DNA from: Clostridia bacterium
GTDB lineage: Bacteria; Bacillota; Clostridia; Christensenellales; Aristaeellaceae
Assembly (NCBI GenBank): GCA_017410445.1
Contig: JAFQQU010000010.1
Location: forward strand, 1 to 48,220
Length of the DNA stretch: 48,220 bases
Direction: 5' to 3'
The notes beneath the pieces were generated by a model, which worked only from the letters and a program-made list of their open reading frames with translations, was not told the DNA's origin and did no database searches. This document shows, piece by piece, positions 15,491 to 33,493 of this stretch. Made by a program: the position numbers and the translations under genes. How positions within the stretch are numbered: the stretch's first letter is position 1; each line of letters opens with the position of its first letter.

Positions 15491-15579
15491 TTCCCACCCT
15501 TTTGAGCGGGAAAAATTTTGTTTCCCACCCTTTCCGGATGCGGTGGGGTGGGGACATGCGCGGGAATATGCCGTATAAT
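15491..15579 (+). promoter_or_regulatory. Promoter of unit A with three copies of a CCCACCC-core motif
   Basis: TTCCCACCCTTT occurs at 15491-15502 and 15522-15533. An inverted near-copy GGGTGGGGA lies at 15546-15554 and overlaps the -35-like GGGACA (15551-15556). A 17-bp spacer precedes TATAAT at 15574-15579. Confidence 0.55.
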
Positions 15580-15687
15580 GAAGCATAATCGAAATTTATA
15601 TAGACTGAAACAGTATACCACAGGCGAAGGGAACCTTCAACGAACTTCAATTTAAGAATCTTTAGACGCAAGGAGGCGCGCTGCATC

Positions 15688-17068: not shown

Positions 17069-17547
17069 TGAGAGAAAAAATATTGGCTGGACTTGTATTG
17101 CTGGCTGTCCTGCTGACGGCTTCCGCCTGTTCAAAGCCGATCAGGACAGACGCACCCATCAGCAGCTTCTCCTTTTCGCATTCGGGCATGCATACCGGGC
17201 TGATTTATACTCTGAGCGCGGCCCGGACAGAAGTTGGCTGGCAGGCGGAGCTTTCCCTGCTGGCCGGCGAACGGGAATATTCGCTGGACATGACCTCGGA
17301 GGAGGTTGAAGCGCTGGCCTCGCTTGTTCAGAATCATGAATTGAGCCGCTGGAACGGATTTGACAGGGTTAACCGTCATGCGCTGGACGGCACCGGTTTT
17401 GACCTGAGAATCGGCTATGAGGACGGTCAGGAAGTCCGCGCGTCAGGCAGCAACGCATTCCCGGAGGGATATGCTGCGGCGCATGAGGCGATTCTGAAGT
17501 TTTTCGGAGAACTGATGGAGAAAAGCGGAATTGACAATCCGCTTTAA
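17065..17547 (+). CDS. Lipoprotein of unknown function (160 aa)
   Basis: Lipobox LLTASAC after a hydrophobic signal (MMREKILAGLVLLAVLLTASAC). ATGA overlap with the upstream gene. Confidence 0.6.
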   Translation: MMREKILAGLVLLAVLLTASACSKPIRTDAPISSFSFSHSGMHTGLIYTLSAARTEVGWQAELSLLAGEREYSLDMTSEEVEALASLVQNHELSRWNGFDRVNRHALDGTGFDLRIGYEDGQEVRASGSNAFPEGYAAAHEAILKFFGELMEKSGIDNPL

Positions 17548-17565
17548 TGGAGAGGAGTTATTTTG

Positions 17566-20500
17566 ATGAAGAAGATTCTGTGCATGACGCTGATGCTGCT
17601 CATGCTGCTGTCCTGCCTGAGCGTACGGGCGGAAGCGGCGGTATGGGATTTTGACACCACCGATTTCAGGCTGAACGGCTATCAGGGCGAGGGCGGCGCA
17701 GTCGTCGTTCCGGATACCATCGACGGCTGCACGGTGGACATTTTCGGCATGTATCTGTTCAACGACGCCGACGCCGTCACCTCGCTGACGCTCCCGGCCA
17801 CCCTGAAGCAGGTCGAGGACAGCGCCGTCGCGTTCTGCGACAGCCTGACTGAGCTGATCATTCCCGAGGGCATTCAGGTCATCGGGGACAACTGCTTCGT
17901 CGGAAATCCGGGCCTGACCGAGCTGGTCATCCCGGCGAGCGTCCGCTACATCGGCGCAAGCAGCTTCGGCAGCAACGAAAACCTCAATAAGGTGACCTTC
18001 CTCGGCGAATGCCCGGTCTTTGCGGGCGCGGCGCTCGACTGGATTGCGGACGACGCTGAGATTTACGTGCCCGACGATCAGTACGACGCGTATGCTGCGG
18101 CGCTGACCGAGGCTGAATGCTATTCGACGATTCTGCCCTCCGGCGCGAACGCGGTCGTGTACGAGCTGACGACCGATCCTTCCCTGTTTGAGTTTGACGC
18201 CGAAACCGGAACCATCACCCGGTTCGCCGGCTTCGACGCCTGCGTCGAGGTTCCCGCGGAAATCGGCGGCGCTGCCGTTAAGGCCATCGGCGACGAGGCG
18301 TTCGGCGACAATAACTATGTCTGCATGGTGACTCTGCCCGAGGGCCTCGAGAGCATCGGCGCGTCCGCGTTCGAGTCCTGCGATACGCTGCTGCATGTTG
18401 ACTTTCCCTCCACGCTGAAGCATATCGGCAGCCGCGCGTTCTATGCGGGTTATCACGGCAGAGCGCTGAATCTGCCCGCCGTTGAAACCATCGGCGACGA
18501 GGCGTTTGGCAGGTGCGTGCGCCTGACCGATCCCGTTTATCTGCCCGAAGGATTGAAGCGCATCGGAAACAGCGCGTTTGACGGCTGCGGCTGGCTGGGC
18601 GAGGTCTATCTGCCGGCTTCCGTTGAAACCATCGGCGAGAGAGCCTTTGCCGACAGCGGCATGAACTATCTGGTCTTCAACGGCCTGAAGCTGCCGGAGA
18701 TTGCGGATACCGCCTTTGAAAACTGCTGGTATCTGTCGGATATCGACCTTCACACCAAGACGACCAAGCAGGAAATGCTGGACATGCAGGCCAAGGTTGA
18801 TGCGCTGGGGCTTACCTGCCGCGTATGGCGCATGCAGAATCCGGACGTCGATTATGTAAACGACGGTCTGGACACCTACGAAAACGGCGTGCTGACCGCC
18901 TATACCGGCGAGCAGACTCACCTGCGCCCGTGGGATACCTATGATGACGTCACCGTAACGGCGCTGGGCGACGGCGTGTTTGCGAATAATACGTATATCG
19001 AATACTTTGCCGTACCCTACAATGATGAATTCACCACCATCGGCGCGGAGGCCTTTGCGAATAGTTCCCTGATGCAGATTGACCTGTTCGACTCCGTCAC
19101 CACCATCAACGGCGGTGCGTTCCGTAATTGCGCGAATCTGACCGAGCTGACTCTGCCCGAATCGGTTGAATTCGTGGGCGTGGAAGCGCTGTACGGCTGC
19201 ACCGGGCTTCAGAAGCTGACCGTTCTGTGCGATCCCACCGTGCTGCCTGAGGATCTGTTTGACGTATGGCCGGAAGGTCTGGAAATCTATGCCGGTGAAA
19301 ACGCCACCGATGAACAGCTGATGTACCTTACCTCCATTGCGGGCCGTCCCTTCTATCAGCCCGTCACCCGCATCGGCGAGCCGCTGCCCGAGCTGACTGC
19401 TTCTCCCTATGAGGCGCTGCCCGCGGAGGATTTCTGGTATGACACCGAGTTTGCCCGTCTGGACAACTATCAGGGCTACGAGCTCAATCTGGTGCTGCCC
19501 AGCACTGCGGAAGATACGATGCTGACCATGGTCGGCGGCAGCATGATGGGCCGCGCCATGTTCGGCGACAACTACGAGCAGGAGCTGCCCGTTGTCTCCG
19601 TCGTCATCCCGCAGGGCTACACCGAAATTCCGCCCTTCGCCTTCCAGAACTGCGATACGCTGGAAACCGTAATCTGCTACGCGCCTCTCGAGCTGCTGCC
19701 CGACAGCGCATTCTCCGGCTGCACCAGCCTGCGCGAGGTCGTGTTCGTAAACGGCGTTCACAGCATCGGCGAATATGTATTCGACGGCTGCCCGAACCTT
19801 GAGACGGTCTATCTGGGCCAGTATGTTGAGAATGTCGGCGAATTTGCGTTTATGGATCAGTTCGGCGATACGGTATGGTCCATGGAGCAGTGCATCACCG
19901 ACCCGGCGCTCCTGCCCGACATCGACTCGATGCTGGAGGCCGTGAAGCGCGAGCCCATGGCCGAGCCCGAGCCGGAAGCCACGCCCGAGCCCGCGGTCCC
20001 GGTCGGCGAGGAAGGCAAGGATTTCTTCGGCCTGTGGATCGGCACCGAGATGGATATGGGCGGCGAGGTCATGAAGCTGTCCGACTGGGAAATCATCATG
20101 AACGTCCTGCTGCTTGAGGACGGCAGAATGATCGCCATGGATGAAGAGGTCACCGACTGGAGCGCGCTTGACGGATTCGAAGCGCCCGGCTGGCGCGTGG
20201 AGAACGGCGTCGCCATCGGCGATACCTGCACGATGACCATTCTCGAGGACGGACGTCTCCTCATGGATGAGGACGGCATGCAGATTTACTTTGAGCGCAG
20301 CGACGTGCAGATTGACGTTCCGTCCGCGCCCGCACAGCCCGAAACGCCCGTACAGCCCGAGGCTCCCGCTGTTCCTGAAGCGCCTGCCGCGCCTGAGACG
20401 TCCGCCGATGCGTCCGGACGCACGGAAATCAAGTTCGTCTGCGAAAGCGCCGACGTCAGCGGCTTCAATATGGCTGCGTCCATGCTGGGCGGCGAGTATT

Positions 20501-20700
20501 CGATGATCTTCCGCGAGGACGGAAACGCCGTGTTTGTCGTCGTCGGCAACGAGATGCCGGGCGTCACCTGGAAGCAGCTTGACAGCGGCAATTTCCAGAT
20601 TGATTTCTATGGCACGCCCATGGAAATCGTCTGGACGGACAAGGGCTTCGATATGAACTACATGGATTCCATGCTGATGCACTTCGTTCCCGCGAACTGA
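17566..20700 (+). CDS. Secreted BspA-type (LRR_5) leucine-rich-repeat protein with Pro/Glu linkers and two C-terminal lipocalin-like beta modules
   Basis: Signal peptide MKKILCMTLMLLMLLSCLSVRAEA. It carries many ~23-aa units of the form LTxLxIPxxVxxIGxxAFxxCxxL. The linkers are PEPEATPEPAVP and PSAPAQPETPVQPEAPAVPEAPAAPE. A GGAGAGGAG RBS lies 8 nt before ATG 17566. Confidence 0.8.
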   Translation: MKKILCMTLMLLMLLSCLSVRAEAAVWDFDTTDFRLNGYQGEGGAVVVPDTIDGCTVDIFGMYLFNDADAVTSLTLPATLKQVEDSAVAFCDSLTELIIPEGIQVIGDNCFVGNPGLTELVIPASVRYIGASSFGSNENLNKVTFLGECPVFAGAALDWIADDAEIYVPDDQYDAYAAALTEAECYSTILPSGANAVVYELTTDPSLFEFDAETGTITRFAGFDACVEVPAEIGGAAVKAIGDEAFGDNNYVCMVTLPEGLESIGASAFESCDTLLHVDFPSTLKHIGSRAFYAGYHGRALNLPAVETIGDEAFGRCVRLTDPVYLPEGLKRIGNSAFDGCGWLGEVYLPASVETIGERAFADSGMNYLVFNGLKLPEIADTAFENCWYLSDIDLHTKTTKQEMLDMQAKVDALGLTCRVWRMQNPDVDYVNDGLDTYENGVLTAYTGEQTHLRPWDTYDDVTVTALGDGVFANNTYIEYFAVPYNDEFTTIGAEAFANSSLMQIDLFDSVTTINGGAFRNCANLTELTLPESVEFVGVEALYGCTGLQKLTVLCDPTVLPEDLFDVWPEGLEIYAGENATDEQLMYLTSIAGRPFYQPVTRIGEPLPELTASPYEALPAEDFWYDTEFARLDNYQGYELNLVLPSTAEDTMLTMVGGSMMGRAMFGDNYEQELPVVSVVIPQGYTEIPPFAFQNCDTLETVICYAPLELLPDSAFSGCTSLREVVFVNGVHSIGEYVFDGCPNLETVYLGQYVENVGEFAFMDQFGDTVWSMEQCITDPALLPDIDSMLEAVKREPMAEPEPEATPEPAVPVGEEGKDFFGLWIGTEMDMGGEVMKLSDWEIIMNVLLLEDGRMIAMDEEVTDWSALDGFEAPGWRVENGVAIGDTCTMTILEDGRLLMDEDGMQIYFERSDVQIDVPSAPAQPETPVQPEAPAVPEAPAAPETSADASGRTEIKFVCESADVSGFNMAASMLGGEYSMIFREDGNAVFVVVGNEMPGVTWKQLDSGNFQIDFYGTPMEIVWTDKGFDMNYMDSMLMHFVPAN

Positions 20701-20718
20701 TCTTCCGAGGTGAATGAT

Positions 20719-22005
20719 ATGAGTACGATTGCTTATACCTGTCCCTGCTGCGGCGCACCGCTGTCCTTCAGCGGAGCGAGCGGCAAGCTCGAATGCGCCG
20801 CCTGCGGGAACAGCTACGACACCGAAGCCATCGAGGCGATGAATCCGGCCGTGACCGACGAGGGCCCCGCGTTTGATCTGCCGAAGGAGGAATTCAATCA
20901 GGAAGAAGCCGCCGGCATGCATGCGTATCTGTGCGAGGGGTGCGGCGCGGAGCTGATGACCGAGGGCGCCACCACCGCCACCGAATGCCCCTACTGCGGA
21001 AGCCCCGCCATTCTGCCCGACCGGATTGAGGGCGGTGTGAAGCCGGAGAAGGTTATTCCCTTCACCGTGACCAAAGAACAGGCGCAGCAGCAGTTCGAAG
21101 AGTATTTCAAGGGCAAGCGCCTGCTGCCCAACGTGTTCCTCGAGAGCCGCAACCGCATCACCGAGATGCGCAGGCTGTATGTTCCCTACTGGCTGTTCGA
21201 CTGCGAGGCCGACGCCAACATCGTCTACGACGCCGAGAAGGAGCATACCCGCCGCGAGGGCGACTGGGAAATCACCCGGACCGAGCATTATGTCGTCCGC
21301 AGAAAGGGCGGCATGGCCTTTGAGCACATCCCGGTGGACGGAAGCGTGAAGCTGGACAATAAGATCACCGAATCGCTCGAGCCCTACGACCTGAGCGCGG
21401 CGGTTCCCTTCAGCCCGTCCGTCCTTGCCGGCGCGCTGGCCGACCATGCGGACGTGGACGCAGCCGAATGCGAGGGCCGCGCGATGGAGCGCGTTGAAAA
21501 CAGCGTGTCTCAGGCGATGCGCGAAACGGTCGTCGGCTACACCCGCGTGAACGAGCGCAGCACGAACATTCGCACCGAGGGCGGCAAGGTAACGCCGGTG
21601 CTGATGCCGGTCTGGCTGATCACCACCGAAAAGGAAGGAACGACCTACACTTTCGCCATCAACGGACAGACCGGGAAGCTGACCTGCGACGTACCGGCGG
21701 ATAAAAAGAAGTCCCTCATCTGGGGCGGAAGCGTGTTTGCAGGCGCGTTCGGAATCGGCGCGCTGGCGCTGTGGCTGCTTGGGCAGCTGGGCAGCGGAAC
21801 GCTTTTGATCGCGGCCGTGATCGCAGCGATCATCGCGCTGATCGTGGTCGGCAGCCTGACGGCGCAGCTTAAGCAGGCGGTGCATCAGAACGCGGCTGCG
21901 GACTATGTGCGCAAGGGCTCCTTCAAGCTCGACGTAAGCTACGACCGGTTCCTCTATGAAACCACGAAAAAGAGGAAGATCGAAACCGGGAATCAGAACA
22001 AATAA
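20719..22005 (+). CDS. Membrane protein with two N-terminal zinc ribbons, a central globular domain and a C-terminal TM hairpin (YdjG-like?)
   Basis: CPCCG...CAACG and CEGCG...CPYCG. The C-terminal hydrophobic stretches are LIWGGSVFAGAFGIGALALWLL and LLIAAVIAAIIALIVVGSL. A GAGGTG RBS precedes ATG 20719. Confidence 0.6.
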   Translation: MSTIAYTCPCCGAPLSFSGASGKLECAACGNSYDTEAIEAMNPAVTDEGPAFDLPKEEFNQEEAAGMHAYLCEGCGAELMTEGATTATECPYCGSPAILPDRIEGGVKPEKVIPFTVTKEQAQQQFEEYFKGKRLLPNVFLESRNRITEMRRLYVPYWLFDCEADANIVYDAEKEHTRREGDWEITRTEHYVVRRKGGMAFEHIPVDGSVKLDNKITESLEPYDLSAAVPFSPSVLAGALADHADVDAAECEGRAMERVENSVSQAMRETVVGYTRVNERSTNIRTEGGKVTPVLMPVWLITTEKEGTTYTFAINGQTGKLTCDVPADKKKSLIWGGSVFAGAFGIGALALWLLGQLGSGTLLIAAVIAAIIALIVVGSLTAQLKQAVHQNAAADYVRKGSFKLDVSYDRFLYETTKKRKIETGNQNK

Positions 22006-22023
22006 CAAAGGAGGAAGACGAAA

Positions 22024-23430
22024 ATGGGCCTGATATCTGCAGGATTGAACGCTTTGAACGGCACGCTGGCCAGCCAGTGGAAGGAATTCTTCTATGCCGA
22101 CGCGATGCCGGACAATGTGCTTGCCGCCAAGGCGATGAAGAAAACCAGGGGCCGCTTCGGCGGCAGCAGAACTGAGGACGACAACGTAATCACCGAAGGC
22201 TCCGTCATCGCGGTGGCCGACGGCCAGTGCATGATGATCGTCGATCAGGGCAAAATCGTTGATTTCTGCGCCGAGCCCGGCGAATATATCTATGAGGCGG
22301 GCGGCGAGCCCAGCCTGTTCTTAGGTGAGTTCAGCGGCGAGAAGGTCAAGACCATTCTGAAGACCACCTTTGAGCGCTTCTCCTTCGGCGGCCAGGCGGG
22401 CAAGGATCAGCGCGTGTACTACTTCAACACCAGAGAACTGACCGGCAACAAGTATGGCACGCCCAGCGCTGTGCCCTTCCGCGTGGTGGATCAGAATATC
22501 GGGCTGGATATCGACGTCTCCATCCGCTGCTTCGGCGAATACAGCTACCGCATGACCAATCCGATCCTGTTCTATACGAACGTCTGCGGCAACATCGAGG
22601 GCGAGTATACCCGCGACCGCATCGACAGCCAGCTCAAGAGCGAGCTGCTGACCGCGCTGCAGCCGGCTTTTGCCCGGATTTCCGCCATGGGCATCCGCTA
22701 CAGCGCGCTGCCGGGCCATACCCTTGAGATCACCGAGGCGCTCAACGAGGTTCTGTCCGAGAAGTGGGCGAATCTGCGCGGCGTGGAGATCGTGTCCTTC
22801 GGCATGAATTCGGTCAAGGCGTCCGAGGAAGACGAGGCCATGATCAAGGAGCTTCAGAAGAACGCCGTCTTCCGCAATGCCAATATGGCGGCGGCGCATC
22901 TGGTCGGCGCGCAGGCGCAGGCCATGCAGGACGCCGCGAAGAACGCGGGCGGCGCTGTCAGCGGCTTCATGGGCATGAACATGGCGCAAGGCGGCGGTAT
23001 GAACGTATCTCAGCTGTTCCAGATGGGCGCGCAGCAGCAGGCGCAGCCTTCCGCGCCGACGCAGTCCGCTGCCGACGGCTGGAAGTGCTCCTGCGGCGCG
23101 ACGGCGACCGGAAAATTCTGCCCCGAGTGCGGCGCGAAGAAGCCCGAGCCCAAGGCGGCCGGCTGGAAGTGCCCCTCCTGCGGCGCGCAGGCGAGCGGCA
23201 AATTCTGTCCCGAGTGCGGCGCGAAGAAGCCCGAGGCCGACGGCTGGACCTGCCGCTGCGGCGCGGTAAACAAGGGCAAGTTCTGCGCGGAGTGCGGCGC
23301 GAAGCGTCCTGCGGGCGCGCCGGTCTATCAGTGCGACAAGTGCGGCTGGAAGCCCGAGGACCCGGCGCATCCGCCGAAGTTCTGCCCCGAGTGCGGCGAC
23401 CGGTTTGACGATACGGATGTGATTTCCTGA
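22024..23430 (+). CDS. SPFH/band-7-like protein of the COG4260 type (virion-core-protein-like) with four C-terminal zinc ribbons
   Basis: The N-terminus MGLISAGLNALNGTLASQWKEFFYADAMP... and the overall layout fit the stomatin/prohibitin-family proteins that carry a C-terminal Zn-ribbon. The tail holds GWKCSCGATATGKFCPECGAKKPE, GWKCPSCGAQASGKFCPECGAKKPE, GWTCRCGAVNKGKFCAECGAKRP and YQCDKCG...KFCPECGDRF. Confidence 0.7.
   Translation: MGLISAGLNALNGTLASQWKEFFYADAMPDNVLAAKAMKKTRGRFGGSRTEDDNVITEGSVIAVADGQCMMIVDQGKIVDFCAEPGEYIYEAGGEPSLFLGEFSGEKVKTILKTTFERFSFGGQAGKDQRVYYFNTRELTGNKYGTPSAVPFRVVDQNIGLDIDVSIRCFGEYSYRMTNPILFYTNVCGNIEGEYTRDRIDSQLKSELLTALQPAFARISAMGIRYSALPGHTLEITEALNEVLSEKWANLRGVEIVSFGMNSVKASEEDEAMIKELQKNAVFRNANMAAAHLVGAQAQAMQDAAKNAGGAVSGFMGMNMAQGGGMNVSQLFQMGAQQQAQPSAPTQSAADGWKCSCGATATGKFCPECGAKKPEPKAAGWKCPSCGAQASGKFCPECGAKKPEADGWTCRCGAVNKGKFCAECGAKRPAGAPVYQCDKCGWKPEDPAHPPKFCPECGDRFDDTDVIS
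23077..23400 (+). repeat. Tandem 81-84-bp coding repeats (Zn-ribbon units)
   Basis: GGCTGGAAGTGC/GGCTGGACCTGC units start at 23077, 23161 and 23242. A fourth, more divergent unit follows. Confidence 0.8.
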
Positions 23431-23767: not shown

Positions 23768-23796
23768 TTGATAAATAAAGGCAGAGATATTATAAT
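23768..23796 (+). promoter_or_regulatory. Near-consensus sigmaA promoter of unit B
   Basis: TTGATA (23768-23773), a 17-bp spacer, then TATAAT (23791-23796), set in an AT-rich 527-bp spacer. Confidence 0.7.
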
Positions 23797-23957
23797 TTAG
23801 GGAAGAGAATTGTTAGTTTTATCTGATAACAGGTTGCAGCGAAAATGGCAGGCGTCCCCGCAGGCACGGGCGACGCCTGAGGTCGATTGTTTTGGAGTGA
23901 AACGCCCCGGATTTCGGGGGGATTCTTTACTAAGTACGCAGGCGAGGGGAAATTGAT

Positions 23958-26939
23958 ATGCCCAATCAGGATTTACTCTGCTTCAGCTGTATGGCCAAGC
24001 TGCCGGAGGCGGGAGCGGTCTGTCCGCGATGCGGCCATGACAACCGGAACCGGTCGAACGGGCCGGGATATCTTTCCGGAATGATTCTGGAAAGGCAGTA
24101 TCTGGTCGGCAAGGTGCTGGGCCACGGCGGATTCGGCGTTACCTATATCGGTTTTGACATGAATCTGGCCCGCCGGGTGGCGATCAAGGAGTATTTCCCG
24201 CGGGAAATGGTGACCCGCGCGGGGAATTCCATTACGCTGCAGCCGTTTACCGGCATGGGCGACCAGTTTGCAAAGGGCTGCGAGCGGGCGCTGGACGAAG
24301 GACGGATGATTGCAAACATGCAGAACATCCCCAACGTCGTTCAGGTGTACAACGCGTTCCCGGCCAACGGCACCGTCTATACCATCATGGAATATATCGC
24401 AGGAACGACGCTGACGCATATGGTCGAGGGCGCCGGCCGTCTTCAGTGGAAGTATGCCTACGGCCAGATGAAGCCGGTCATGTTCGCGCTGGATCAGATT
24501 CATAAGCGCGGCGTTATTCACCGCGACATCAGCCCGGATAACGTCATGCTGAGCCATGAAATCGATCAGACCGTGCTGCTGGATTTCGGCGCGGCGCGCG
24601 CATATCAGGGCGTGAAAGGGCTGAGCAGCACGCTGAGGCCCGGCTTCGCTCCGGTCGAGCAGTACAGCAGCATCGCTTCGCAGGACGCGCGGACCGATGA
24701 ATATGCGCTGTGCGCGACCTTGTATTTCCTCGTAACCGGCAAAAGACCGCCGGAATCCACGCAGATTGCATACGGCGGCGTGCCGCTGCCCGATCCGATC
24801 AGCCTGGGCGCGGATATCTCCGAAAGCGTGCAGGCCGTGCTGCTGCGCGGCATGTCCGTCAGAATGGAGGAGCGGTACGGCTCGATCAGAGAGCTGATGC
24901 AGGCCTTCGATGAAGCCGAAAAGGCGCATTCCTCCAAACACAAAAAGAGAACTAAGGACAATACCTCCAATAAAGAGGGAATGAACATCGCACTGATCGC
25001 CGCGTGCGCGGGCGTAACCGTTGCGGCGCTGGTGGCGGCGATTCTGATCTTCAATAAAATTCAGGACCGGTCCGGCTCGCAGCCGGATCCGCAGCCGACC
25101 GTGCAGATTACGACTGCCACTCCGACGCCGACCGAAAAGCCGACCGAGAAGCCGACCGAAAAGCCGACCGAGAAGCCGACCGAGAAGCCGACTGCAAAGC
25201 CGACAGCGACGCCGACGATGAAGCCGACAGCGACGCCGACGATGAAGCCGACAGCGACGCCGACCGAAAAGCCGACAGCGACGCCGACTGCAAAGCCGAC
25301 AGCGACGCCGACTATGAAGCCGACAGCGACGCCGACTATGAAGCCGACAGCGACGCCTGTCGTATGGCCGGCGACGCAGCCGGAGCAGATCACCGGACTC
25401 TGGACGGACGGCGCTGATCAGTATCTGTCCTTCAGCGCAAACGGCAGATGCACGGTTACGACGCCGATGACGACGTTCAGATGGATGTGGGAGGACGCCG
25501 GCAGCGGAATGCTCAGGATGACGCTGGGCAATTACGCCGGCGAGCAGATCGCGGTCGACGAAAAAGGCGTGCTGCACATCGGCAGCGAAAAGAGCTTCTT
25601 CCGCGCCATGGGATCGATTGACGAGAGCGGATATGCGGGCATCTGGAGCGCCTGCTACTGGTCGTACGGCGGAGACCTGCGCAGCGAGGGCCGGGAGAGC
25701 ATGCTGGTACTGTCCATGGACGGCAGCGGCAGCTTCCTGAACGCGGACGGCGAGGTTGAAACCGGAAGCTGGTCCGGCGGGGACGGCGAAGCCTGGTTCG
25801 GAAAGGACAAAACGCCGATGACGCTGCTGGACGGCGGCTTCCTGAAGCTGGGCGAGGGCAAGGACTACACTGTATTCGGCTGGGGGCCGGACGCGGCATG
25901 GGCGCCGGTCGAAGGCAGCCGCGTGATGGGCATGCTGTGGGAGACGGGCGGCGACGGAAGCAACCGGCTGACGCGCAGCGATATTGCCTGCGCGGACGTT
26001 CAGGAGATCACCTTCCTGAATTCGACTGCCGACGCGCCGCGGAGCGCATGGGATTTCTCCGCGGAGGAGGACGGTTCCGTTCTGGCGTGGACCGATGCGG
26101 GCGACGACGGCATGGTCAGGCTGTATATCGGCGCGAACGGCGGCGTCAAGGCGGGCCCCGATATGAGCCGTGCGTTCTCCGGCGGAGAGAACGGCTTCAG
26201 CCGTCTTGAAAAAATCCGCATGGGCGGCGCGCTCGATACGTCTGAAACCTCGAACATGAGCGAGATGTTCGGAGGATGCGCCAGCCTGGCTGAGCTGGAC
26301 CTTTCCGGCATGAATACGGCGAATGTCGAGGATATGCAGGGCATGTTCGCCGACTGCTTCAGCCTGACAAAGCTGGATGTATCCGGCCTTGATACCTCGA
26401 AGGTCATAAACTTCGGGGATATGTTCGATTTCTGCACCAGCCTGACGGAGCTGGATATTTCCGGCTTCGATACCTCGAGCGCCGTGAATATGTTCAGCAT
26501 GTTCGGCTACTGTGAGGGCCTGACGAAGCTGGACGTATCCGGCTTTGATACCTCGAAGGTCAGCAGCATGGCTTTCATGTTCAATCATTGCACCGGCCTG
26601 ACCGAACTGGACCTGACCGCCTTCAATACATCCTCCGTCACGGATATGAGCTACATGTTTGAAGGCTGCGAGAGCCTGACCGCGCTGAACGTATCGTCCT
26701 TTGATACGTCCGGAGTGGCGTTCATGAACAGTATGTTCAAGGGTTGCACGGCGCTCCGCAAGCTGGATCTGTTCCGGTTCAACACCTCGAATGTTTTGTT
26801 CATGGACTTTATGTTCCAGAACTGCACGAGCCTCAGAACCATTCTGGCCGACCGCTACGGCTTCAGAATCCGCACCGGCGTTTCCACCACGGATATGTTC
26901 CTGGACTGCGGAACCCAGGAGCTGACTTATATTGACTGA
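23958..26939 (+). CDS. Receptor Ser/Thr protein kinase: Zn-ribbon + Hanks kinase + TM + PT-rich stalk + lipocalin-like modules + DUF285-type LRR ectodomain
   Basis: Zn-ribbon CFSC...CPRCG. Kinase motifs GHGGFGVTY, VAIKEY, HRDISPDNVML, DFGAAR and GFAPVEQY. TM helix MNIALIAACAGVTVAALVAAILIF (24981-25052). (PTEK)n/(PTATPTMK)n stalk. About eight 26-aa units LxxLDxSGxDTSxVxxMxxMFxxCxS. Confidence 0.85.
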   Translation: MPNQDLLCFSCMAKLPEAGAVCPRCGHDNRNRSNGPGYLSGMILERQYLVGKVLGHGGFGVTYIGFDMNLARRVAIKEYFPREMVTRAGNSITLQPFTGMGDQFAKGCERALDEGRMIANMQNIPNVVQVYNAFPANGTVYTIMEYIAGTTLTHMVEGAGRLQWKYAYGQMKPVMFALDQIHKRGVIHRDISPDNVMLSHEIDQTVLLDFGAARAYQGVKGLSSTLRPGFAPVEQYSSIASQDARTDEYALCATLYFLVTGKRPPESTQIAYGGVPLPDPISLGADISESVQAVLLRGMSVRMEERYGSIRELMQAFDEAEKAHSSKHKKRTKDNTSNKEGMNIALIAACAGVTVAALVAAILIFNKIQDRSGSQPDPQPTVQITTATPTPTEKPTEKPTEKPTEKPTEKPTAKPTATPTMKPTATPTMKPTATPTEKPTATPTAKPTATPTMKPTATPTMKPTATPVVWPATQPEQITGLWTDGADQYLSFSANGRCTVTTPMTTFRWMWEDAGSGMLRMTLGNYAGEQIAVDEKGVLHIGSEKSFFRAMGSIDESGYAGIWSACYWSYGGDLRSEGRESMLVLSMDGSGSFLNADGEVETGSWSGGDGEAWFGKDKTPMTLLDGGFLKLGEGKDYTVFGWGPDAAWAPVEGSRVMGMLWETGGDGSNRLTRSDIACADVQEITFLNSTADAPRSAWDFSAEEDGSVLAWTDAGDDGMVRLYIGANGGVKAGPDMSRAFSGGENGFSRLEKIRMGGALDTSETSNMSEMFGGCASLAELDLSGMNTANVEDMQGMFADCFSLTKLDVSGLDTSKVINFGDMFDFCTSLTELDISGFDTSSAVNMFSMFGYCEGLTKLDVSGFDTSKVSSMAFMFNHCTGLTELDLTAFNTSSVTDMSYMFEGCESLTALNVSSFDTSGVAFMNSMFKGCTALRKLDLFRFNTSNVLFMDFMFQNCTSLRTILADRYGFRIRTGVSTTDMFLDCGTQELTYID
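25128..25358 (+). repeat. Tandem 12-bp and 24-bp coding repeats (PT-rich stalk)
   Basis: Six copies of CCGACCGA(A/G)AAG in phase (the sixth is CCGACTGCAAAG) span 25128-25199. Six and a half copies of CCGACAGCGACGCCGACnnnnAAG run from 25200. Confidence 0.9.
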
Positions 26940-26972: not shown

Positions 26973-27791
26973 ATGCGTTCCGGCATTCAGACCAAACAAA
27001 CGGGAGCCGAGCGTACCGGCCGCGCTTTTCGCATTCTGGCGCGCGGCAGCAGCGACCCGGGCGCCCGCAGCGCTCAGCAGGATGCATTTCTCATCTCGGA
27101 CCGGAAGCTGAGCCGAGAGCGCGGCATGATGGCGGTGCTCTCGGACGGCATGGGCGGCATGCGCGACGGCGAGCTGTACAGCAGAATCGCCACGCAGGAA
27201 ATGATCCGCTATTTTGAAACCGCCGATCCCCGGCAAAACATCTGCGATATTCTGCTGAATGCATACCGCGCAGCCCGCCGGACTGCGCTTCAGCAGACGG
27301 GCGCGCACAGCGGAGGCGCGACGGTGGTCGCGGCGGCGGTGCGCAGCAGGCGCTGCGCGATTCTTTCGGTGGGCGACAGCCGGATCTGCCTGTTCCGGGG
27401 CGGCGGACTGATTCCGCTGAACCGGGAGCATACGCTGGGCCGTCAGCTGGACGAGCGGGCGGCGCTGGGCTATATTCCGGAGGAAGAGGCGCGCTACAAC
27501 ATCTACCGGGATACGCTGACCAATCACCTCTGCGCGGAAAGCGAGCTGCCGGCCGACCGGTGCCTGAAGCCGTTTAAGGTATGTCCGGGCGACAAGCTGC
27601 TGATGATGAGCGACGGCGTGTCCGGCACGCTGAGCGATGAGGAGATCGTCCGGTTTCTGAGCATGCCGCGCGTTTCCGGCGCAGACGCCATGATCGAGGA
27701 AATCCGTCGGCGCGGTCTGCCGAATCAGGACAATAGCACCGCATTGATACTGGCCTTTGAGTCTTACATAAAGACGGAAATCGGAGGATAA
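26973..27791 (+). CDS. PP2C-family Ser/Thr phosphatase, soluble
   Basis: Motifs QDAFLISD, AVLSDGMGGMRDGE, VGDSRICLF, MMSDGVSG and QDNSTALILAF. AAAGGAGGGATGGG RBS. Confidence 0.85.
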   Translation: MRSGIQTKQTGAERTGRAFRILARGSSDPGARSAQQDAFLISDRKLSRERGMMAVLSDGMGGMRDGELYSRIATQEMIRYFETADPRQNICDILLNAYRAARRTALQQTGAHSGGATVVAAAVRSRRCAILSVGDSRICLFRGGGLIPLNREHTLGRQLDERAALGYIPEEEARYNIYRDTLTNHLCAESELPADRCLKPFKVCPGDKLLMMSDGVSGTLSDEEIVRFLSMPRVSGADAMIEEIRRRGLPNQDNSTALILAFESYIKTEIGG

Positions 27792-27795
27792 TAAT

Positions 27796-28971
27796 ATGAA
27801 TAACTCTACTCAGGTCCCTGAAAGCACGCTTTCGTCTCAGGACGTCATGCCCGGACCGGCTCCGAATGGCGGCGTTGAAGTGATTCAGCCGGATGTATCG
27901 AAAATCCCCACGCAGACCCCTACGCAGACGCCCACGGCCGAACCGCAAGGAACGGCCGGGCCCGGCTCGACGGAAGCAGCCGCAATAACCCTGATCACGG
28001 AAATGCCCGCCCCCACCGGCGGAAAAACCGGCGGAGAAACCAAGGCGGATTTCCCCGGCGGCCTGATTTTCGGCATCTGTCTGGCGGCGGTCATCGCGCT
28101 GGCAGCTGCGGCCGCCGCGTATATGGCGGTGAAGCGGCAGAAGCCCGCTCCGACCCCTGATAACGGCCCGAAGGATGAGACTGGCTTCCAGAAGACGGAA
28201 GTCGTCGAGAATCCCGAGTCCGTCAGCGCGACCTGCTATGCGGCCGGCTATGCGCAGACCGTGGGCAGCCGCGGCAATCAGGAGGATTCCTGCTTCGTAT
28301 CCGACTGGAGCAATCCGGATACCGTGAATCTCAGGGGCGTTCTGGCGGTCGTGGCCGACGGCGTCGGCGGCATCAGCAACGGACAGGTTGCCAGCAATGC
28401 GGCCGTACAGAGCATGAAGGCCTATTTCGAGTCTCAGGGCGGCGGCGGCTCCATGAGCGGGCGGCTGCTTTCTCTGGCGGCGCAGGCGCAGAAGGATGTG
28501 CTGGGTGTGATCCGTCAGGTCGGCCGCTGCGCCACTACGCTGGTCACCGTGCTGATTCAGGACAGGCAGATGGTAATGCTGTCCGTCGGCGACAGCCGCA
28601 TTGCGCTGTACCGCGCAGGCGCGCTGCTGCAGCTCAACCGCGAGCATGTGGTCGGCAAGGAAATCGACGAAAATGCGGCGCTGCATGCGGAAGCCGTAGC
28701 GGACGGCCGCAAGCGGCAGGCGATCACCTCCTATCTGGGCAAGGATGATCTCCGCCTGATCGACCGGACCACCACGCCGCTTCAGCTGATTCCGGGCGAC
28801 CGCGTCCTGCTGATGAGCGACGGCGTATTCAACGCGATGAGCGACGACGAGCTGATTGCCTTCATGAACAGACCGCCGAAGCAGGCGGCGGAGGCCGTAA
28901 TCCGGGCGATTGAAGAGAAGAAGCTGTCCGGCCAGGACAACGCGACGATTGTTATTGTGGAAGTAAGATAA
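27796..28971 (+). CDS. PP2C-family Ser/Thr phosphatase with N-terminal PT-rich segment and TM anchor
   Basis: TM helix GLIFGICLAAVIALAAAAAAYMAV. PP2C motifs NQEDSCFVSD, AVVADGVGGISNG, VGDSRIALY, LLMSDGVFN and QDNATIVIVEV. The RBS lies inside the end of the upstream PP2C gene. Confidence 0.85.
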   Translation: MNNSTQVPESTLSSQDVMPGPAPNGGVEVIQPDVSKIPTQTPTQTPTAEPQGTAGPGSTEAAAITLITEMPAPTGGKTGGETKADFPGGLIFGICLAAVIALAAAAAAYMAVKRQKPAPTPDNGPKDETGFQKTEVVENPESVSATCYAAGYAQTVGSRGNQEDSCFVSDWSNPDTVNLRGVLAVVADGVGGISNGQVASNAAVQSMKAYFESQGGGGSMSGRLLSLAAQAQKDVLGVIRQVGRCATTLVTVLIQDRQMVMLSVGDSRIALYRAGALLQLNREHVVGKEIDENAALHAEAVADGRKRQAITSYLGKDDLRLIDRTTTPLQLIPGDRVLLMSDGVFNAMSDDELIAFMNRPPKQAAEAVIRAIEEKKLSGQDNATIVIVEVR

Positions 28972-28996: not shown

Positions 28997-31900
28997 ATGA
29001 AGAGAAGGCCTGTGATGCTGCTGGCAGCCATACTGCTGGCCGTCCTGGTGTTTCCGGCGGTTGTATGGGCCGTTTCGGGGAGCGGCGTTCTTCTGATCGA
29101 CGCTCCGAGAACCGAAGCGGAATACACCGTGCTGGGAACCTCTCTTCCGCGCAGCCGGGTTGCGTCGGTTACCTTTGAAGATACGCTGACGGCCGCTCCG
29201 GCGGATGCATGGGACGTCTCCAAGTCTCAGGACGGAAGCCTGCTGGCATGGGCGGTTCCGAACGGAAGTCTGTATGATCTGCATATTGCCGGAGAGGGCG
29301 GCGTCCGGGCCGCGCAGTATTCGGCGGGGCTCTTTGAAGGGTATACCGCGCTTCAGAGGATTTATTTCAACGGATGCTTCGATACGAGCGGCGTCATTAG
29401 TATGGACGCCATGTTCAAGGGCTGCAGCTCGCTGACCGAGCTGGACCTGACCGGATTTGACGTCGGCCGCGTTGAATTCATGGATGATTTTTTCTATGGA
29501 TGCTCTGCGCTTCAGCTCATCCGGGTCCGGGAGGACTTCGTCCCGCCCGAGGGCACGAACATGCGCCGCATGTTTTTCGACTGCAGCGCCCGGCTGGTCT
29601 ACGCTGTTGCGCCGCAGCAGCCGGCCAGCAATATTCTGCGCGGCGACCGGCTGACGGCGGCCGAGAAGACGGCCAATACCGGCAAGGTATTCGGCAGCTC
29701 CATCCCGCGCGGACAGATTGAATCGGTCGCCTTTGTAAGCAGCCTGTCCGGCATGCCGTCCGGCGCGTGGGACGTATCTGAGGAGGGCGACGGCTCCGTC
29801 ATGGCATGGACCGAGCCCGCCGGAGAGATGCATCATCTGTACATCGGCGCAAACGGCGTTATTAAGGCCGGCGCGGATACCTGCCGCGAGCTGTTCAAGG
29901 GCTATTCCAATGTAAAGACCATCCGCTTTGACGGCGCGTTTGATACGAGCGCCGCAGAGAACATGCAGCTGATGTTCTCCGGCTGCTCCGCTCTGACCGA
30001 ACTGGATGTGTCCGGCTTTGATACCTCCAATGTCAGAAACATGCTGTCTATGTTCTACGGCTGCTCCGCCCTGACCGAATTGGATGTGTCCGGCTTTGAT
30101 ACGTCTGCGGTTGAGACCATGCGGACCATGTTCTACGAATGCTCTTCGCTGAAGAAGCTGAATGTTTCGGGCTTCAATACATCAAACGTCACCAGCATGA
30201 GGTCCATGTTCTATGGCTGTGGCAGCCTGACCGAACTGGATGTATCCGGCTTTGATACGTCGGCGGTTGAATCCATGGGTGCAATGTTCTATGAGTGCTC
30301 TAGACTGGAGCAGCTGGACGTGTCCGGTTTTGACACCGGCAGAGTCACGGATATGGCCGATGTGTTTAACGGCTGTGGCAGCCTGACCGAACTGGATGTA
30401 TCCGGGTTCAATACGGAAGCTGCAACAACGATGCAGGGTATGTTCTGCGAATGCTTTGCGTTGAAGCAGCTGGATGTGTCTGGATTCAGTACCGCCGGGG
30501 TTACGGATATGTCGTTCATGTTCTATAAGTGCAATGTCTTGAGAACGTTGGATGTGTCCGGCTTTGATACGTCGGCGGTTGAGACCATGAGCGCGATGTT
30601 CTATGAGTGCTCCAGACTGGAGCAGCTTGATGTCTCCGGGTTTGATACCGGCAGAGTCATTGATATGGCGCACATCTTCTACGGCTGTGGCAGCCTGACT
30701 GCGCTGGATGTAACCGGCTTTGACACTTCGTCTGTTGCGACGATGCACGACCTGTTCTCCGGCTGCTCCGCCCTGACCGAACTGAATGTCTCCGGCTTTG
30801 ACACCGGAAGCGCTGCGGATATGTCGGGCATGTTCTCCGGCTGCTCCGCTCTGACGTATCTGGACCTGACCGGATTTGATACCGCGGGCGTATCGAACAT
30901 GTCGAATATGTTCGAAAACTGCACTGCCTTGGCGAATATTCTGGTTGGCGAGCGCTTTGTCATCGGACAGAATACAGAGACGGCAGATATGTTCACCTAC
31001 TGCAAGGCCGGAGGGCTGACCTATCTGCGCGGCGACAGCAATATTCTGCGCGGCGACGAGGGCGGGACGGTGCTGGGCAGCGAGATTCCGCGCACGCAGA
31101 TTGCGTCCGTTACCTTTGCGGACAGCCTGTCCGGCATGACAGAGGATGCATGGGACGCATCGGCGGAAGGCGACCGCTCGGTCATGGCATGGACCGAACC
31201 GAACGGCGAACTGTATGACCTGTATATCGGCGCAAACGGTGTTATTAGGGCCGGCGCGAATACCTGCCGCGGGCTGTTTAAGGGCTATTCCAATGCGAAG
31301 ATCATCCGCTTCGGCGGCTGCTTTGATACGAGCGGCGCGGCGGATATGAGCTTCATGTTCTCCGAGTGCCGCAGTCTGACGGAGCTGGACGTAAGCGGAT
31401 TTAGAACCGGCGGCGTTACGGACCTGTCCGGCATGTTCAGCTACTGCAGCGGGCTGAGAAATCTGGATGTGAGCGGCTTTGATACGCGGAACGTCCTGAA
31501 TATGGAGGATTTGTTCTTCAACTGTAGCGCGCTGGAGCAGCTGGATGTAAGCGGGTTTGATACCGCCAGCGTTACGGATATGAGCTGGATGTTTGCAAGA
31601 TGCGGCGCGCTGACCGAACTGGATATCACCGGCTTCGACACGGCCAATGTCGGGGACATGGCGCATATGTTCGAATACAGCGGCACGCTGACCCGCATTC
31701 TGGTCGGAAAAGGCTTCGTCATCGGAACCAAAACGGACACCGGAAGCATGTTTGCAAACTGTGGGGTCAGCGGGCTGACCCGTGTCTCCGACGGCGGTAC
31801 GCTCCGCCACGATATGCTCACTGTACGGGAGCGGATGAATAATGCCGGCGCCGTCATGGACAGCGGCATTCCGCGTACGCAGATTGCGGAGGTCCGCTTC

Positions 31901-33436
31901 GTGAACAGTCTGGAAGGTATGCCGGAGGATGCGTGGGACGTATCTGTGGAGAGAAACGGCTCCGTCATGGCATGGACCGAACCGAACGGCGGGCTGTATA
32001 ACCTGTTCATCGGCTCATATGGCACGATCAGGGCCGATACGCTGACCTGCCGCGACCTGTTCAGCGGCTATTCCTCCGCGCAGGTTATTGATTTCGGCGG
32101 AATCTTCGATACGAGCGCCGCAAAGGATATGGCGTGCATGTTCTCCGGCTGCTCGTCGCTCACACAGCTGGACGTAAGAGGCTTCGATACGTCCAATGCG
32201 GCGGATATGAGAGAGATGTTCTATCACTGCTTTGAGCTGAGAGATCTGGATGTGAGCGGCTTCGATACGTCCAATGTAACGAATATGAGACGCATGTTCT
32301 GCAGCTGCGGCATGCTGAAGCTGCTGGATGTGAGCGGCTTCAATACCAGCCGCGTCACAGATATGTCTTATATGTTCTACAGCTGCGTGGACCTGAACAC
32401 GCTGGACACGGCCGGATTTGACACTTCTAACGTAGTTGATTTTTCGTATATGTTCGGCAAGTGCTCTAGCCTGAAAGGGCTGAATCTGACGGGCTTCCAT
32501 ACGGTAAGCGCCCAAAGCATGAACCGCATGTTCAACGGCTGCTCTTCTCTGAGGCAGCTGACGCTGCCCGGGTTTGTCACCGAGCAGGTCGCCGATATGA
32601 GCGGCATGTTCGGCGGGTGCCAAATGCTGAAAAGCATTCAGGTCCGGGAAGGTTTTGTCATCCATCCGGATGCGAATGACGAGGGCATGTTCCTCGGCTG
32701 CGGCACGCATAGCCTGACCAGGCTTCCCGATGAAGGCGGCGTTCTCCGCAGCGATATGCTGACCGCTGCAGAGCGGCAGTATCACACCGGCAAGGTGCTG
32801 GGCAGCGACATTTACCGCGCGGAGATTGCGTCGGTCAGCTTTGTCGCAAGCCTGTCCGGCATGACGGACGGCGCATGGGACGTTTCCGAGGCGGGCGACG
32901 GCTCGGTCATGGCATGGGCGGTGCCCGACGGAGAGATGTATCATCTGTATATCGGCGCAAACGGCTCCATCCGGGCAGGCAGGAAAACCTGCCGGGATCT
33001 GTTCTGCGATTATTCCGGCGCGGAGGTCATCCGCTTCGGCGGCCTGTTCAATACAGGCGATGCAGAGGATTTTTCCTATATGTTCAGCGGATGCTCCTCG
33101 CTGACGGAACTGAACCTGTTCGGATTCAACGCACGCAGCGCGGAAATCTTCAAGGATATGCTCTCCGGCTGCGGCAGCCTGCTGGCTGTAAGCGCGCCCA
33201 ACGGCGTCGTTTTTGATGCGAACGCCACGATAGCCAAAGGAATGAGCGGCGATCGTGTAAGCATTGTTCAGGAGGCGCTGTCGCACGGAGGCTATCTGAG
33301 CGGAAGCGTTGACGGAATTTTCGGAAGCGGCACGGAAAGCGCGGTGAAGAAGTTCCAGAAGGACGCCCGGTTGGACGAGACCGGCGTCGTGGACGGCTCG
33401 ACGATGGCCGCGCTGCTGCTCCGGCATTGGGACTAA
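28997..33436 (+). CDS. Giant secreted DUF285/BspA-family LRR protein (5 super-modules) with C-terminal PG_binding_1 domain
   Basis: Signal peptide MKRRPVMLLAAILLAVLVFPAVVWA. Five cap modules (..AWDVSxxGDGSVMAW..), each followed by runs of 26-aa units LTELDVSGFDTSxVxxMxxMFxxCxx. C-terminal GDRVSIVQEALSHGGYLSGSVDGIFGSGTESAVKKFQKDARLDETGVVDGSTMAALL. Confidence 0.85.
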   Translation: MKRRPVMLLAAILLAVLVFPAVVWAVSGSGVLLIDAPRTEAEYTVLGTSLPRSRVASVTFEDTLTAAPADAWDVSKSQDGSLLAWAVPNGSLYDLHIAGEGGVRAAQYSAGLFEGYTALQRIYFNGCFDTSGVISMDAMFKGCSSLTELDLTGFDVGRVEFMDDFFYGCSALQLIRVREDFVPPEGTNMRRMFFDCSARLVYAVAPQQPASNILRGDRLTAAEKTANTGKVFGSSIPRGQIESVAFVSSLSGMPSGAWDVSEEGDGSVMAWTEPAGEMHHLYIGANGVIKAGADTCRELFKGYSNVKTIRFDGAFDTSAAENMQLMFSGCSALTELDVSGFDTSNVRNMLSMFYGCSALTELDVSGFDTSAVETMRTMFYECSSLKKLNVSGFNTSNVTSMRSMFYGCGSLTELDVSGFDTSAVESMGAMFYECSRLEQLDVSGFDTGRVTDMADVFNGCGSLTELDVSGFNTEAATTMQGMFCECFALKQLDVSGFSTAGVTDMSFMFYKCNVLRTLDVSGFDTSAVETMSAMFYECSRLEQLDVSGFDTGRVIDMAHIFYGCGSLTALDVTGFDTSSVATMHDLFSGCSALTELNVSGFDTGSAADMSGMFSGCSALTYLDLTGFDTAGVSNMSNMFENCTALANILVGERFVIGQNTETADMFTYCKAGGLTYLRGDSNILRGDEGGTVLGSEIPRTQIASVTFADSLSGMTEDAWDASAEGDRSVMAWTEPNGELYDLYIGANGVIRAGANTCRGLFKGYSNAKIIRFGGCFDTSGAADMSFMFSECRSLTELDVSGFRTGGVTDLSGMFSYCSGLRNLDVSGFDTRNVLNMEDLFFNCSALEQLDVSGFDTASVTDMSWMFARCGALTELDITGFDTANVGDMAHMFEYSGTLTRILVGKGFVIGTKTDTGSMFANCGVSGLTRVSDGGTLRHDMLTVRERMNNAGAVMDSGIPRTQIAEVRFVNSLEGMPEDAWDVSVERNGSVMAWTEPNGGLYNLFIGSYGTIRADTLTCRDLFSGYSSAQVIDFGGIFDTSAAKDMACMFSGCSSLTQLDVRGFDTSNAADMREMFYHCFELRDLDVSGFDTSNVTNMRRMFCSCGMLKLLDVSGFNTSRVTDMSYMFYSCVDLNTLDTAGFDTSNVVDFSYMFGKCSSLKGLNLTGFHTVSAQSMNRMFNGCSSLRQLTLPGFVTEQVADMSGMFGGCQMLKSIQVREGFVIHPDANDEGMFLGCGTHSLTRLPDEGGVLRSDMLTAAERQYHTGKVLGSDIYRAEIASVSFVASLSGMTDGAWDVSEAGDGSVMAWAVPDGEMYHLYIGANGSIRAGRKTCRDLFCDYSGAEVIRFGGLFNTGDAEDFSYMFSGCSSLTELNLFGFNARSAEIFKDMLSGCGSLLAVSAPNGVVFDANATIAKGMSGDRVSIVQEALSHGGYLSGSVDGIFGSGTESAVKKFQKDARLDETGVVDGSTMAALLLRHWD

Positions 33437-33493
33437 TATAAGGAAGGAATCGGAAACCCAATTCGCGCCGTGCGGACGGGAGGAGAGAAACAC

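Follow-up and report, generated by a model that had tools for sequence, protein, structure and literature searches.

A clostridial membrane Ser/Thr kinase with a predicted outer part of DUF285 leucine-rich repeats: a putative surface-sensing receptor in a kinase/PP2C/FHA gene cluster

We describe here a gene from a 48,220-nucleotide stretch of DNA of a Clostridia bacterium (Clostridia; Christensenellales; Aristaeellaceae; GenBank assembly GCA_017410445.1, contig JAFQQU010000010.1, positions 1 to 48,220 of the forward strand), which, as a whole, we call the window. The gene, at 23958 to 26939 (+), is an uninterrupted open reading frame (ORF) of 993 amino acids (aa) in which a zinc ribbon, a Hanks-type Ser/Thr kinase domain, a transmembrane (TM) helix, a Pro/Thr-rich (PT) stalk, an orphan region, and a module of DUF285 leucine-rich repeats (LRRs) follow one another from the N terminus to the C terminus, and a ribosome-binding site (GAGGGG, 23944 to 23949, +) can be read directly 8 nucleotides (nt) 5' of its ATG. 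An initial annotation of this DNA had described one polypeptide in which an intact Hanks kinase is followed by a single TM helix, then a PT stalk, and farther on about eight 26-aa DUF285 repeats, and Pfam, NCBIfam, and inspection of the motifs bear this out. The ORF encodes a membrane Ser/Thr kinase with DUF285 LRRs that are probably outside the cell; the part of the earlier description that found no support is a pair of GxW lipocalin-like modules, discussed below with the orphan region.

Over the C-terminal third of the protein, Pfam matches DUF285 (PF03382) with an E value of 1.5e-45 and a score of 154.3 bits against a cutoff of 25, and weaker matches to LRR_5, LRR_8, LRR_4, and LRR_EndoS fall on the same stretch. 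NCBIfam matches the “PARCEL repeat” (TIGR02167) in seven stretches, with 195.4 bits against a cutoff of 30. Based on both scores and on the tandem 26-aa units, the module belongs to the DUF285/PARCEL family. Eight units of 26 aa each span aa 759 to 966 (26232 to 26855, +), as delimited by Pfam, NCBIfam, the motif period, and the fold matches; their consensus is “fdTS.V..M..MF..CtsLt.LD.sg.”, and the motif F..C..L recurs at aa 771, 797, 823, 849, 875, 901, 927, and 953, an exact 26-aa period. At the DNA level, the repeats appear as a tandem repeat of period 78 (26341 to 26707). An N-terminal cap (aa 655 to 758; 25920 to 26231, +) precedes them, with the conserved pattern “...TFL.S....AWD.S..GDGSV.AW...LYI...GGV.A”, in the alignment of which the D, S, and W are invariant, and a degenerate ninth repeat or C-terminal cap (aa 967 to 993; 26856 to 26936, +) closes the protein. 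In style, this 26-residue, Cys-containing unit comes nearest to the CC-type LRR.

Do these repeats fold as an LRR solenoid, as the initial annotation expected? Based on an alignment of the query with 15 sequences (six modules from three DUF285 proteins encoded downstream and nine ectodomains of homologous kinases), AlphaFold2 modeled aa 650 to 993 with a mean pLDDT of 92.1 and a pTM of 0.89; the pLDDT is ~85 to 96 in the N-terminal cap, exceeds 90 for most repeats, and drops to 56 to 80 in the ninth. When this model was compared with the PDB by Foldseek, all 50 of the 50 best matches were LRR proteins, mostly with probabilities of 0.8 to 1.0. They include FLRT2, NGL2, LGR4/5, LRRTM2, SHOC2, InlJ, Toll-like receptors (TLRs), and the plant protein ERL1 and, among bacterial proteins, TpLRR of T. 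pallidum and the BspA-type proteins BACCAC_03700 and EUBVEN_01088. A sequence search of the PDB with the module also returned LRR proteins only, all of them weak matches (designed LRRs, FBXL2, SKP2, and STRUBBELIG-RF6). As a prediction, then, the expected fold holds up, and an LRR-type solenoid with a geometry of its own is predicted with high confidence. To our knowledge, no DUF285 structure has been solved.

At the other end of the protein, a presumably cytoplasmic zinc ribbon (CFSC ... CPRC, aa 8 to 25; 23979 to 24032, +) has its CxxC motifs at aa 8 and aa 22. Two CxxC motifs within the first 60 aa are also found in 41 of the 44 kinase-bearing homologues among the top 45, and the remaining three have one. 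The kinase domain (aa 47 to 318; 24096 to 24911, +) is defined by a Pfam match and by its catalytic motifs. PF00069 (Pkinase) matches aa 49 to 266 with an E value of 2e-24 and a score of 86.8 bits against a cutoff of 31.7, and the G-loop GHGGFG (aa 55 to 60), the lysine of VAIK (K77), the αC glutamate (E114), HRD (aa 188 to 190, with D190), N195, DFG (aa 209, with D209), and APVE (aa 231) are all kept, the catalytic residues aligning with those of PpkA. The score and the residues alike place the domain among the Hanks-type Ser/Thr kinases, and the earlier wording, “catalytically intact,” stands at the level of the motifs, the content of which predicts a catalytically competent enzyme. The nearest solved kinase structures are those of PpkA (5hnv, E value of 6.7e-36) and PknB (E value of 5e-22).

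The two ends are separated by a single TM helix (aa 342 to 365; 24981 to 25052, +), at exactly the coordinates first annotated. It is the sole hydrophobic stretch of the protein, containing the only 19-aa window with a Kyte-Doolittle hydropathy above 1.6, and seven Lys/Arg residues lie in the 20 aa before it, on the kinase side, versus two in the 20 aa after it. Topology was judged from hydropathy, this charge bias, and homologues. A kinase requires ATP, and the kinase domain would for that reason be cytoplasmic. The DUF285 repeats are probably outside the cell, in an N-in/C-out topology, because the charges follow the positive-inside pattern, because paralogous modules occur in proteins with signal peptides, and because PG_binding_1 domains are present on the ectodomains of homologous kinases; in three of these (P0001, P0007, and P0012), PG_binding_1 follows the kinase's own DUF285 module. 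Beyond the helix, the PT stalk covers ~90 aa (aa ~375 to 465; 25080 to 25352, +). It consists of TEKP and TATP/TMKP units and is recognized by the Pfam PT repeat and by composition, with Thr and Pro making up 55 of 100 residues of the PT region; its DNA carries a tandem repeat of period 12/24/48 (25127 to 25357).

The kinase gene opens a run of seven genes, and, because the intergenic gaps between 26939 and 40820 are only 4 to 69 nt, we infer that the run forms an operon. Starting 33 nt past the kinase stop codon is a gene for a soluble PP2C phosphatase (26973 to 27791, +; PP2C_2, with Stp1/IreP-like matches below cutoff), and it is followed by one for a membrane-anchored PP2C (27796 to 28971, +) with a PT-rich N terminus placed outside, a TM helix at aa 90 to 108, and the phosphatase inside. 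Next come three secreted, multimodule DUF285 proteins (28997 to 33436, 33470 to 35746, and 35816 to 40774, all +), each with a terminal PG_binding_1 domain and a cleavable-looking signal peptide; their modules are 40 to 49% identical to that of the kinase, with N-terminal cap and repeats present in both. The run ends with a protein in which a signal peptide, an extracellular trypsin-like protease, a TM helix, and a cytoplasmic FHA domain are joined (40820 to 42124, +). A gap of 631 nt follows, and then come the genes for another Zn-ribbon kinase, in which an FHA domain is C-terminal (42756 to 44534, +), and for a membrane protein that joins a PT stalk to an FHA domain in the cytoplasm (44547 to 46109, +). 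The two membrane FHA proteins have a common layout, namely, an extracellular part (trypsin-like protease or PT-rich sequence), one TM helix, and an FHA domain in the cytoplasm. Both are likely phospho-threonine-dependent partners of the kinases.

Upstream, a sigma-70-type promoter-like site (TTGATA-17 nt-TATAAT, 23768 to 23796, +), which matches the consensus at 11 of 12 positions and was called as a consensus match only, lies inside the 527-nt gap 5' of the kinase gene. The kinase is indeed the first gene behind this site, as first annotated. Is it also the input of the unit, as was further suggested? The order of the genes fits this suggestion, but the region holds no excess of promoter-like sites (6 observed versus 5.9 expected from shuffled sequence), and the idea goes no further than what the gene order implies. 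An Rfam scan of the window gave zero matches, and the fold of the 5' leader of the kinase gene is not significant (z = -1.33); a riboswitch or attenuator upstream of the kinase was therefore rejected and is not proposed.

In total, we favor, at a probability of roughly 0.6, a reading in which the gene encodes a bitopic, PknB-like (N-in/C-out), surface-sensing receptor Ser/Thr kinase (STK) of the Hanks type within an STK/PP2C/FHA cluster, and we infer its topology, its dependence on a ligand, and a phospho-relay to the FHA proteins. In this model, the zinc ribbon and the kinase would sit in the cytoplasm, the Pro/Thr stalk would carry the C-terminal part through the wall zone, and the DUF285/PARCEL LRR solenoid at the tip would serve as a recognition module, one that the wall-bound proteins encoded downstream have in common with the kinase. 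A surface ligand or a partner protein would engage the LRR module and alter the clustering or dimerization of the kinase and its autophosphorylation. Phosphorylation of the activation loop (SST, aa ~222 to 224) and of juxtamembrane Thr/Ser residues would come next, the resulting phospho-Thr sites would recruit the FHA domains of the co-encoded trypsin-FHA, PT-FHA, and STK-FHA proteins, and the two PP2C phosphatases would reset the switch. PpkA, a threonine kinase of the type VI secretion system (T6SS), has as partners a PP2C, PppA, and an FHA protein, Fha1, and PknB works with PstP and FhaA/FhaB. Because PpkA-PppA-Fha1 and PknB-PstP-FhaA/FhaB work in this way, the kinase/PP2C/FHA trio would, by analogy, most likely form a reversible phospho-threonine switch. 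The LRR module might bind an external ligand (a surface or a protein), the wall-bound DUF285 paralogues, or contact surfaces as an adhesin does.

Much of this design is familiar. Like PknB, PrkC, Stk1, and IreK, the protein has its Hanks kinase at the N terminus, a single TM helix, and repeats at the C terminus that would act as a sensor, with the kinase probably inside the cell and the repeats outside, and it resembles these PASTA kinases further in its adjacent PP2C gene (PstP, PrpC, Stp1, or IreP in those systems), in its candidate FHA partners (compare the actinobacterial FhaA and FhaB), and in its match to PknB. It differs from them in having a DUF285 LRR solenoid as the putative sensor and a zinc ribbon at the N terminus, and its locus differs in carrying a second PP2C gene, in encoding several FHA proteins of the membrane, and in having no cell division or penicillin-binding protein (PBP) genes nearby. 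NF033483, the Stk1/PknB PASTA family, scores 127.5 against a cutoff of 450 and over the kinase part only, and PF03793 is unmatched, which leaves the protein outside that family. With the PpkA-PppA-Fha1 system it would share a TM kinase with an ectodomain, a PP2C, and an FHA partner, and PpkA, which has the closest solved kinase domain, also has in common with it the sequence IKEY(F/M)P after the catalytic lysine. PpkA, however, has a periplasmic vWA-type domain and is encoded among T6SS genes, whereas secretion system genes were not found here. The protein would be the PknB/PrkC/PpkA design with a different sensor; it is a rare variant of a familiar plan, belongs to a small recurrent family, and does not amount to a new kind of system.

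The initial annotation had gone further afield and seen in this gene the layout of plant LRR receptor-like kinases (RLKs). The list of parts is alike: FLS2, BRI1, ERL1, and the STRUBBELIG family, too, unite in one chain an LRR ectodomain, a single TM helix, and a kinase from this superfamily, and the ectodomains of ERL1 and STRUBBELIG-RF6 are among the weak fold and sequence matches of the module. The layout is not. Plant RLKs read signal peptide-LRR-TM-kinase, whereas this protein reads kinase-TM-LRR, with the kinase N-terminal, the LRRs C-terminal, and neither a signal peptide nor any other N-terminal hydrophobic segment, so that the order, and probably the orientation as well, is reversed; the unit, too, is a 24-aa plant-specific LRR there and a 26-aa Cys-containing DUF285 repeat here. 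The pairing of LRRs and a kinase is of independent origin in the two cases and is an analogy in parts, not an architectural homology. Roco proteins such as LRRK2, which is among the weak fold matches, likewise hold LRRs and a kinase in one polypeptide, but they are cytosolic, have N-terminal LRRs and Roc-COR domains, and lack a TM helix, and none of these features is found here. Closer at hand are the DUF285/PARCEL/BspA surface proteins (LppQ-type proteins of Mycoplasma, 26-residue-repeat lipoproteins of Listeria, and surface proteins of Ruminococcus), which belong to the same repeat family but are secreted or lipid anchored and have no kinase.

A 2005 survey lists an LRR-bearing STK in P. aeruginosa (PMC1262709), and this catalogue entry is all that a search of the literature on DUF285 or LRRs with bacterial Hanks kinases turned up; the paper on the PARCEL repeat does not mention a kinase fusion and contains no structure (PMC2996958). 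Within the literature searched, a DUF285 sensor class on bacterial kinases is not described.

The architecture is not a one-off. In a kinase search that scored 8000 candidates and yielded 1111 proteins at an E value of ≤1e-10, we examined the architectures of the best 120 matches. Fifteen clusters among these 120, a minority of the Zn-ribbon kinases, combine the Zn-ribbon kinase with DUF285, all of them from metagenome assemblies and none of them named; a search of 1.84 billion representatives, swamped by giant multimodule DUF285 proteins, added three kinase-DUF285 clusters. Pkinase and DUF285 do therefore occur together in one protein beyond this gene, as the initial annotation had proposed to look for, in a Zn-ribbon-kinase-TM-DUF285 architecture found in at least 18 protein clusters in all. 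At least 17 further clusters carry a BspA-type LRR_5 ectodomain on the Zn-ribbon kinase, a few of which are named “leucine-rich repeat protein” in Clostridia metagenome-assembled genomes (MAGs). The chance, raised earlier, that the architecture would prove common and already characterized was thus realized in part: counting the LRR_5 versions as well, it is recurrent, but it has not been characterized.

How did the kinase come by its sensor? The other clostridial Zn-ribbon kinases (e.g., P0027 and P0060, named “leucine-rich repeat protein”) have the same chassis, TM helix, and PT-stalk plan, with kinases that are 40 to 55% identical, and differ in the family of the ectodomain, which is LRR_5, PF19789, RCC1, Sel1, PASTA, or others. 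In a neighbor-joining (NJ) tree of the kinase domains, the DUF285 kinases stand in at least five separate places among LRR_5, PF19789, and RCC1 kinases, which argues for repeated swapping of sensors and not for a single ancient fusion. To judge from these sequences, the ectodomain was probably acquired by domain swapping within a clostridial Zn-ribbon kinase family that exchanges its sensors freely. From the side of the module, the fusion is a rare use of a common part, because ordinary surface proteins (“BspA family LRR surface proteins”) make up the 120 best relatives of this DUF285 module, none with an intact kinase domain and two with a decayed C-lobe remnant. A scan of GTDB representative genomes gave DUF285 repeat matches only, with no full-length relative found, and a scan of viral contigs gave only matches at the level of the repeat, with no kinase-bearing relative found. 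Four of the module relatives (P0165, P0199, P0218, and P0232) carry TIR domains (PF13676 or PF01582), a Toll-like list of parts, and two others (P0213 and P0275) carry zinc ribbons.

The neighborhood recurs together with the gene, in that STK-DUF285 genes usually adjoin two PP2C phosphatases and FHA proteins. In three other loci (L002, L003, and L018), three tandem STK-DUF285 paralogues are followed by an FHA gene, two PP2C genes, a trypsin-FHA gene, and another, short kinase. The order in L012 is PP2C, STK, PP2C, vWA-FHA, FHA, STK-DUF285, and STK-FHA; L016 has three tandem receptor kinases; L017 has the kinase, a second kinase, and two PP2C genes with no FHA gene; and L005 has two kinases and a PP2C. 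Of the PP2C and FHA genes, L005 and L006 have PP2C only. The tandem paralogues of the L002 array (10001 to 22257), and those of L003 and L018, are 38 to 43% identical, and the third lacks the HRD motif and may be a pseudokinase. Directly before the L002 array lie conjugation genes (DUF87/VirB4-like, MobL relaxase, Toprim, TraG/VirD4 coupling protein, and HTH_36), and this array could be cargo of a conjugative element.

Several observations weigh against the receptor reading. The TM-scores of the modeled module to solved LRR proteins are low (0.13 to 0.47), and the geometry of the solenoid is therefore unlike that of any solved LRR. The ~190-aa orphan region beside the stalk is left unexplained by a receptor model. 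In two relatives (P0245 and P0262), a decayed kinase C-lobe is joined directly to the DUF285 module without a TM helix, and DUF285 is therefore not always demonstrably extracellular. These two proteins, of 558 to 561 aa, one of them named from “Candidatus Scybalocola faecigallinarum,” lack the N-lobe and have the HRD motif replaced, and they are either receptor kinases in decay or cases of the DUF285 module at work in the cytoplasm. Finally, the other loci have the kinase without the secreted DUF285 paralogues.

The last of these points bears on a different question: could the kinase be watching the surface layer of its own cell? In this case, the ectodomain would bind no external ligand but pair with the three wall-bound DUF285-PG_binding_1 paralogues, in the manner of a receptor and its co-receptor or decoy, and the kinase would report the assembly, occupancy, or proteolysis of the layer, with the trypsin-FHA protein as part of the loop. 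The identity of the kinase module to those of its neighbors, all encoded in one tightly spaced run, speaks for such a role, as does the presence of a trypsin-like ectoprotease with a cytoplasmic FHA domain here and in L002, L003, and L018. Yet L002, L012, L013, and L017 have the kinase while a separate DUF285 surface protein was not found within the available sequence, and the kinase module resembles the modules of its own neighbors (41 to 48% identity) no more closely than those of other organisms' kinases (39 to 46%). We consider such self-monitoring unlikely.

Might the protein instead be an adhesin with a signaling tail? Here, a BspA-like LRR would bind host, food particle, or other-cell surfaces, and the kinase would couple attachment to physiology, which amounts to the sensing of contact and not of a soluble ligand. 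Every one of the nearest module relatives bears the annotation “BspA family leucine-rich repeat surface protein,” with no intact kinase domain among the best 120, papers on DUF285 deal with surface lipoproteins and adhesion, and upstream of the kinase gene lies one for an LRR_5 surface protein of the BspA type; however, the intact catalytic motifs argue against vestigial signaling, and this reading, to which we give little weight as a separate explanation, overlaps that of a receptor kinase without excluding it. A role as an antiphage or anticonjugation defense kinase of the PD-T4-6 or mad6 type, in which the LRR detects phage contact and sets off a protective or abortive response, is very improbable, and the assignment was rejected: PADLOC matches PD-T4-6 down to 6e-44 and mad6 at 2e-39, NCBIfam matches MADS6 at 1.8e-35, and the triple kinase cluster of L002 adjoins conjugation genes, but all these matches are limited to the generic kinase domain, NF047741 scores 122.6 against a cutoff of 460, no further defense genes or partner genes were found among the cluster proteins tested, no integrase or tRNA was found bordering the cluster in the window, and no kinase-bearing relative was found in viral contigs. 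A mobile element was rejected as well, since no tRNA, integrase, or recombinase was found among the ORFs tested beside the cluster.

If the gene does encode a surface-sensing receptor kinase, what would this mean? Bacterial Hanks kinases are understood mainly via PASTA sensors of cell wall fragments, and the targets of non-PASTA ectodomains are largely obscure. The family described here would lend itself well to the study of how a bacterial Ser/Thr kinase recognizes a signal, because its protein-binding LRR module is also found on wall-bound neighbors, because it occurs in tandem arrays, and because it bears signs of ectodomain swapping. It would offer an experimental handle on non-PASTA sensing while overturning nothing, would add a clean example of the independent assembly of LRR-plus-kinase receptors in bacteria and plants, and would put the DUF285/PARCEL repeat, abundant yet obscure in function, into a setting where binding could produce an output open to measurement. 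We also speculate, well short of advocating it, that gut and rumen Clostridia keep a diversifying repertoire of surface receptors, with one Zn-ribbon-kinase chassis, swappable LRR ectodomains (DUF285 and BspA LRR_5), tandem arrays, co-encoded soluble or wall-bound versions of the module, and a PP2C/FHA readout. If this doubtful scenario were true, it would be a bacterial counterpart of the receptor kinase/receptor-like protein pairs of plant innate immunity, and the TIR-DUF285 fusions among the module relatives hint at a parallel Toll-like branch.

The orphan juxtastalk region (aa 466 to 654, ~190 aa; 25353 to 25919, +) is where the initial annotation had placed its two GxW lipocalin-like beta modules (aa ~470 to 650), a claim for which we found no support. 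A Pfam search at an E value of ≤10 returned nothing except DUF7586 at an E value of 0.15, a search of 5.8 billion proteins with aa 466 to 671 found no homologue, no counterpart was found in the other kinases, and the two halves of the region show no similarity to each other (z = -0.26). AlphaFold predicts strands there, but with a pLDDT of only 33 to 51, and beta-propeller-like fold matches to a first model were disregarded, the model being unreliable in this region. Based on the low-confidence model, the region is probably a beta-rich, fast-evolving spacer domain. It shows a weak likeness (z = 2.8; 12 of 500 shuffles score as high) to the C terminus of the BspA-type LRR_5 surface protein encoded 5' of the kinase (17563 to 20700, +; identified by Pfam). 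The last ~230 aa of that protein are PT linked and beta rich, with a loose G.W ... DG ... G.W pattern, and are without a Pfam family.

The LRR_5 gene is not the only gene of interest upstream of the kinase. A PG_binding_1 protein is also encoded there, and a run of zinc ribbon proteins (15688 to 23430, +) comprises a pair of small DZR proteins, a Zn-ribbon protein of 431 aa whose TM helices are C-terminal, and an SPFH protein that carries four zinc ribbon repeats at its C terminus; both kinases of the cluster likewise start with a zinc ribbon. The G+C content is 0.47 to 0.53 over positions 1 to 16 kb and rises to 0.56 to 0.62 from ~16 kb, the signaling and surface protein cluster included. The low-G+C part encodes an AraC regulator, a sugar ABC transporter, a beta-lactamase-fold protein, and a lyxose isomerase, and, at its very start, the ORF at 111 to 1061 (+) matches the Cas9 PAM-interacting domain (PF16595, E value of 2.7e-69) and probably represents the 3' end of a cas9 gene that runs across the edge of the window.

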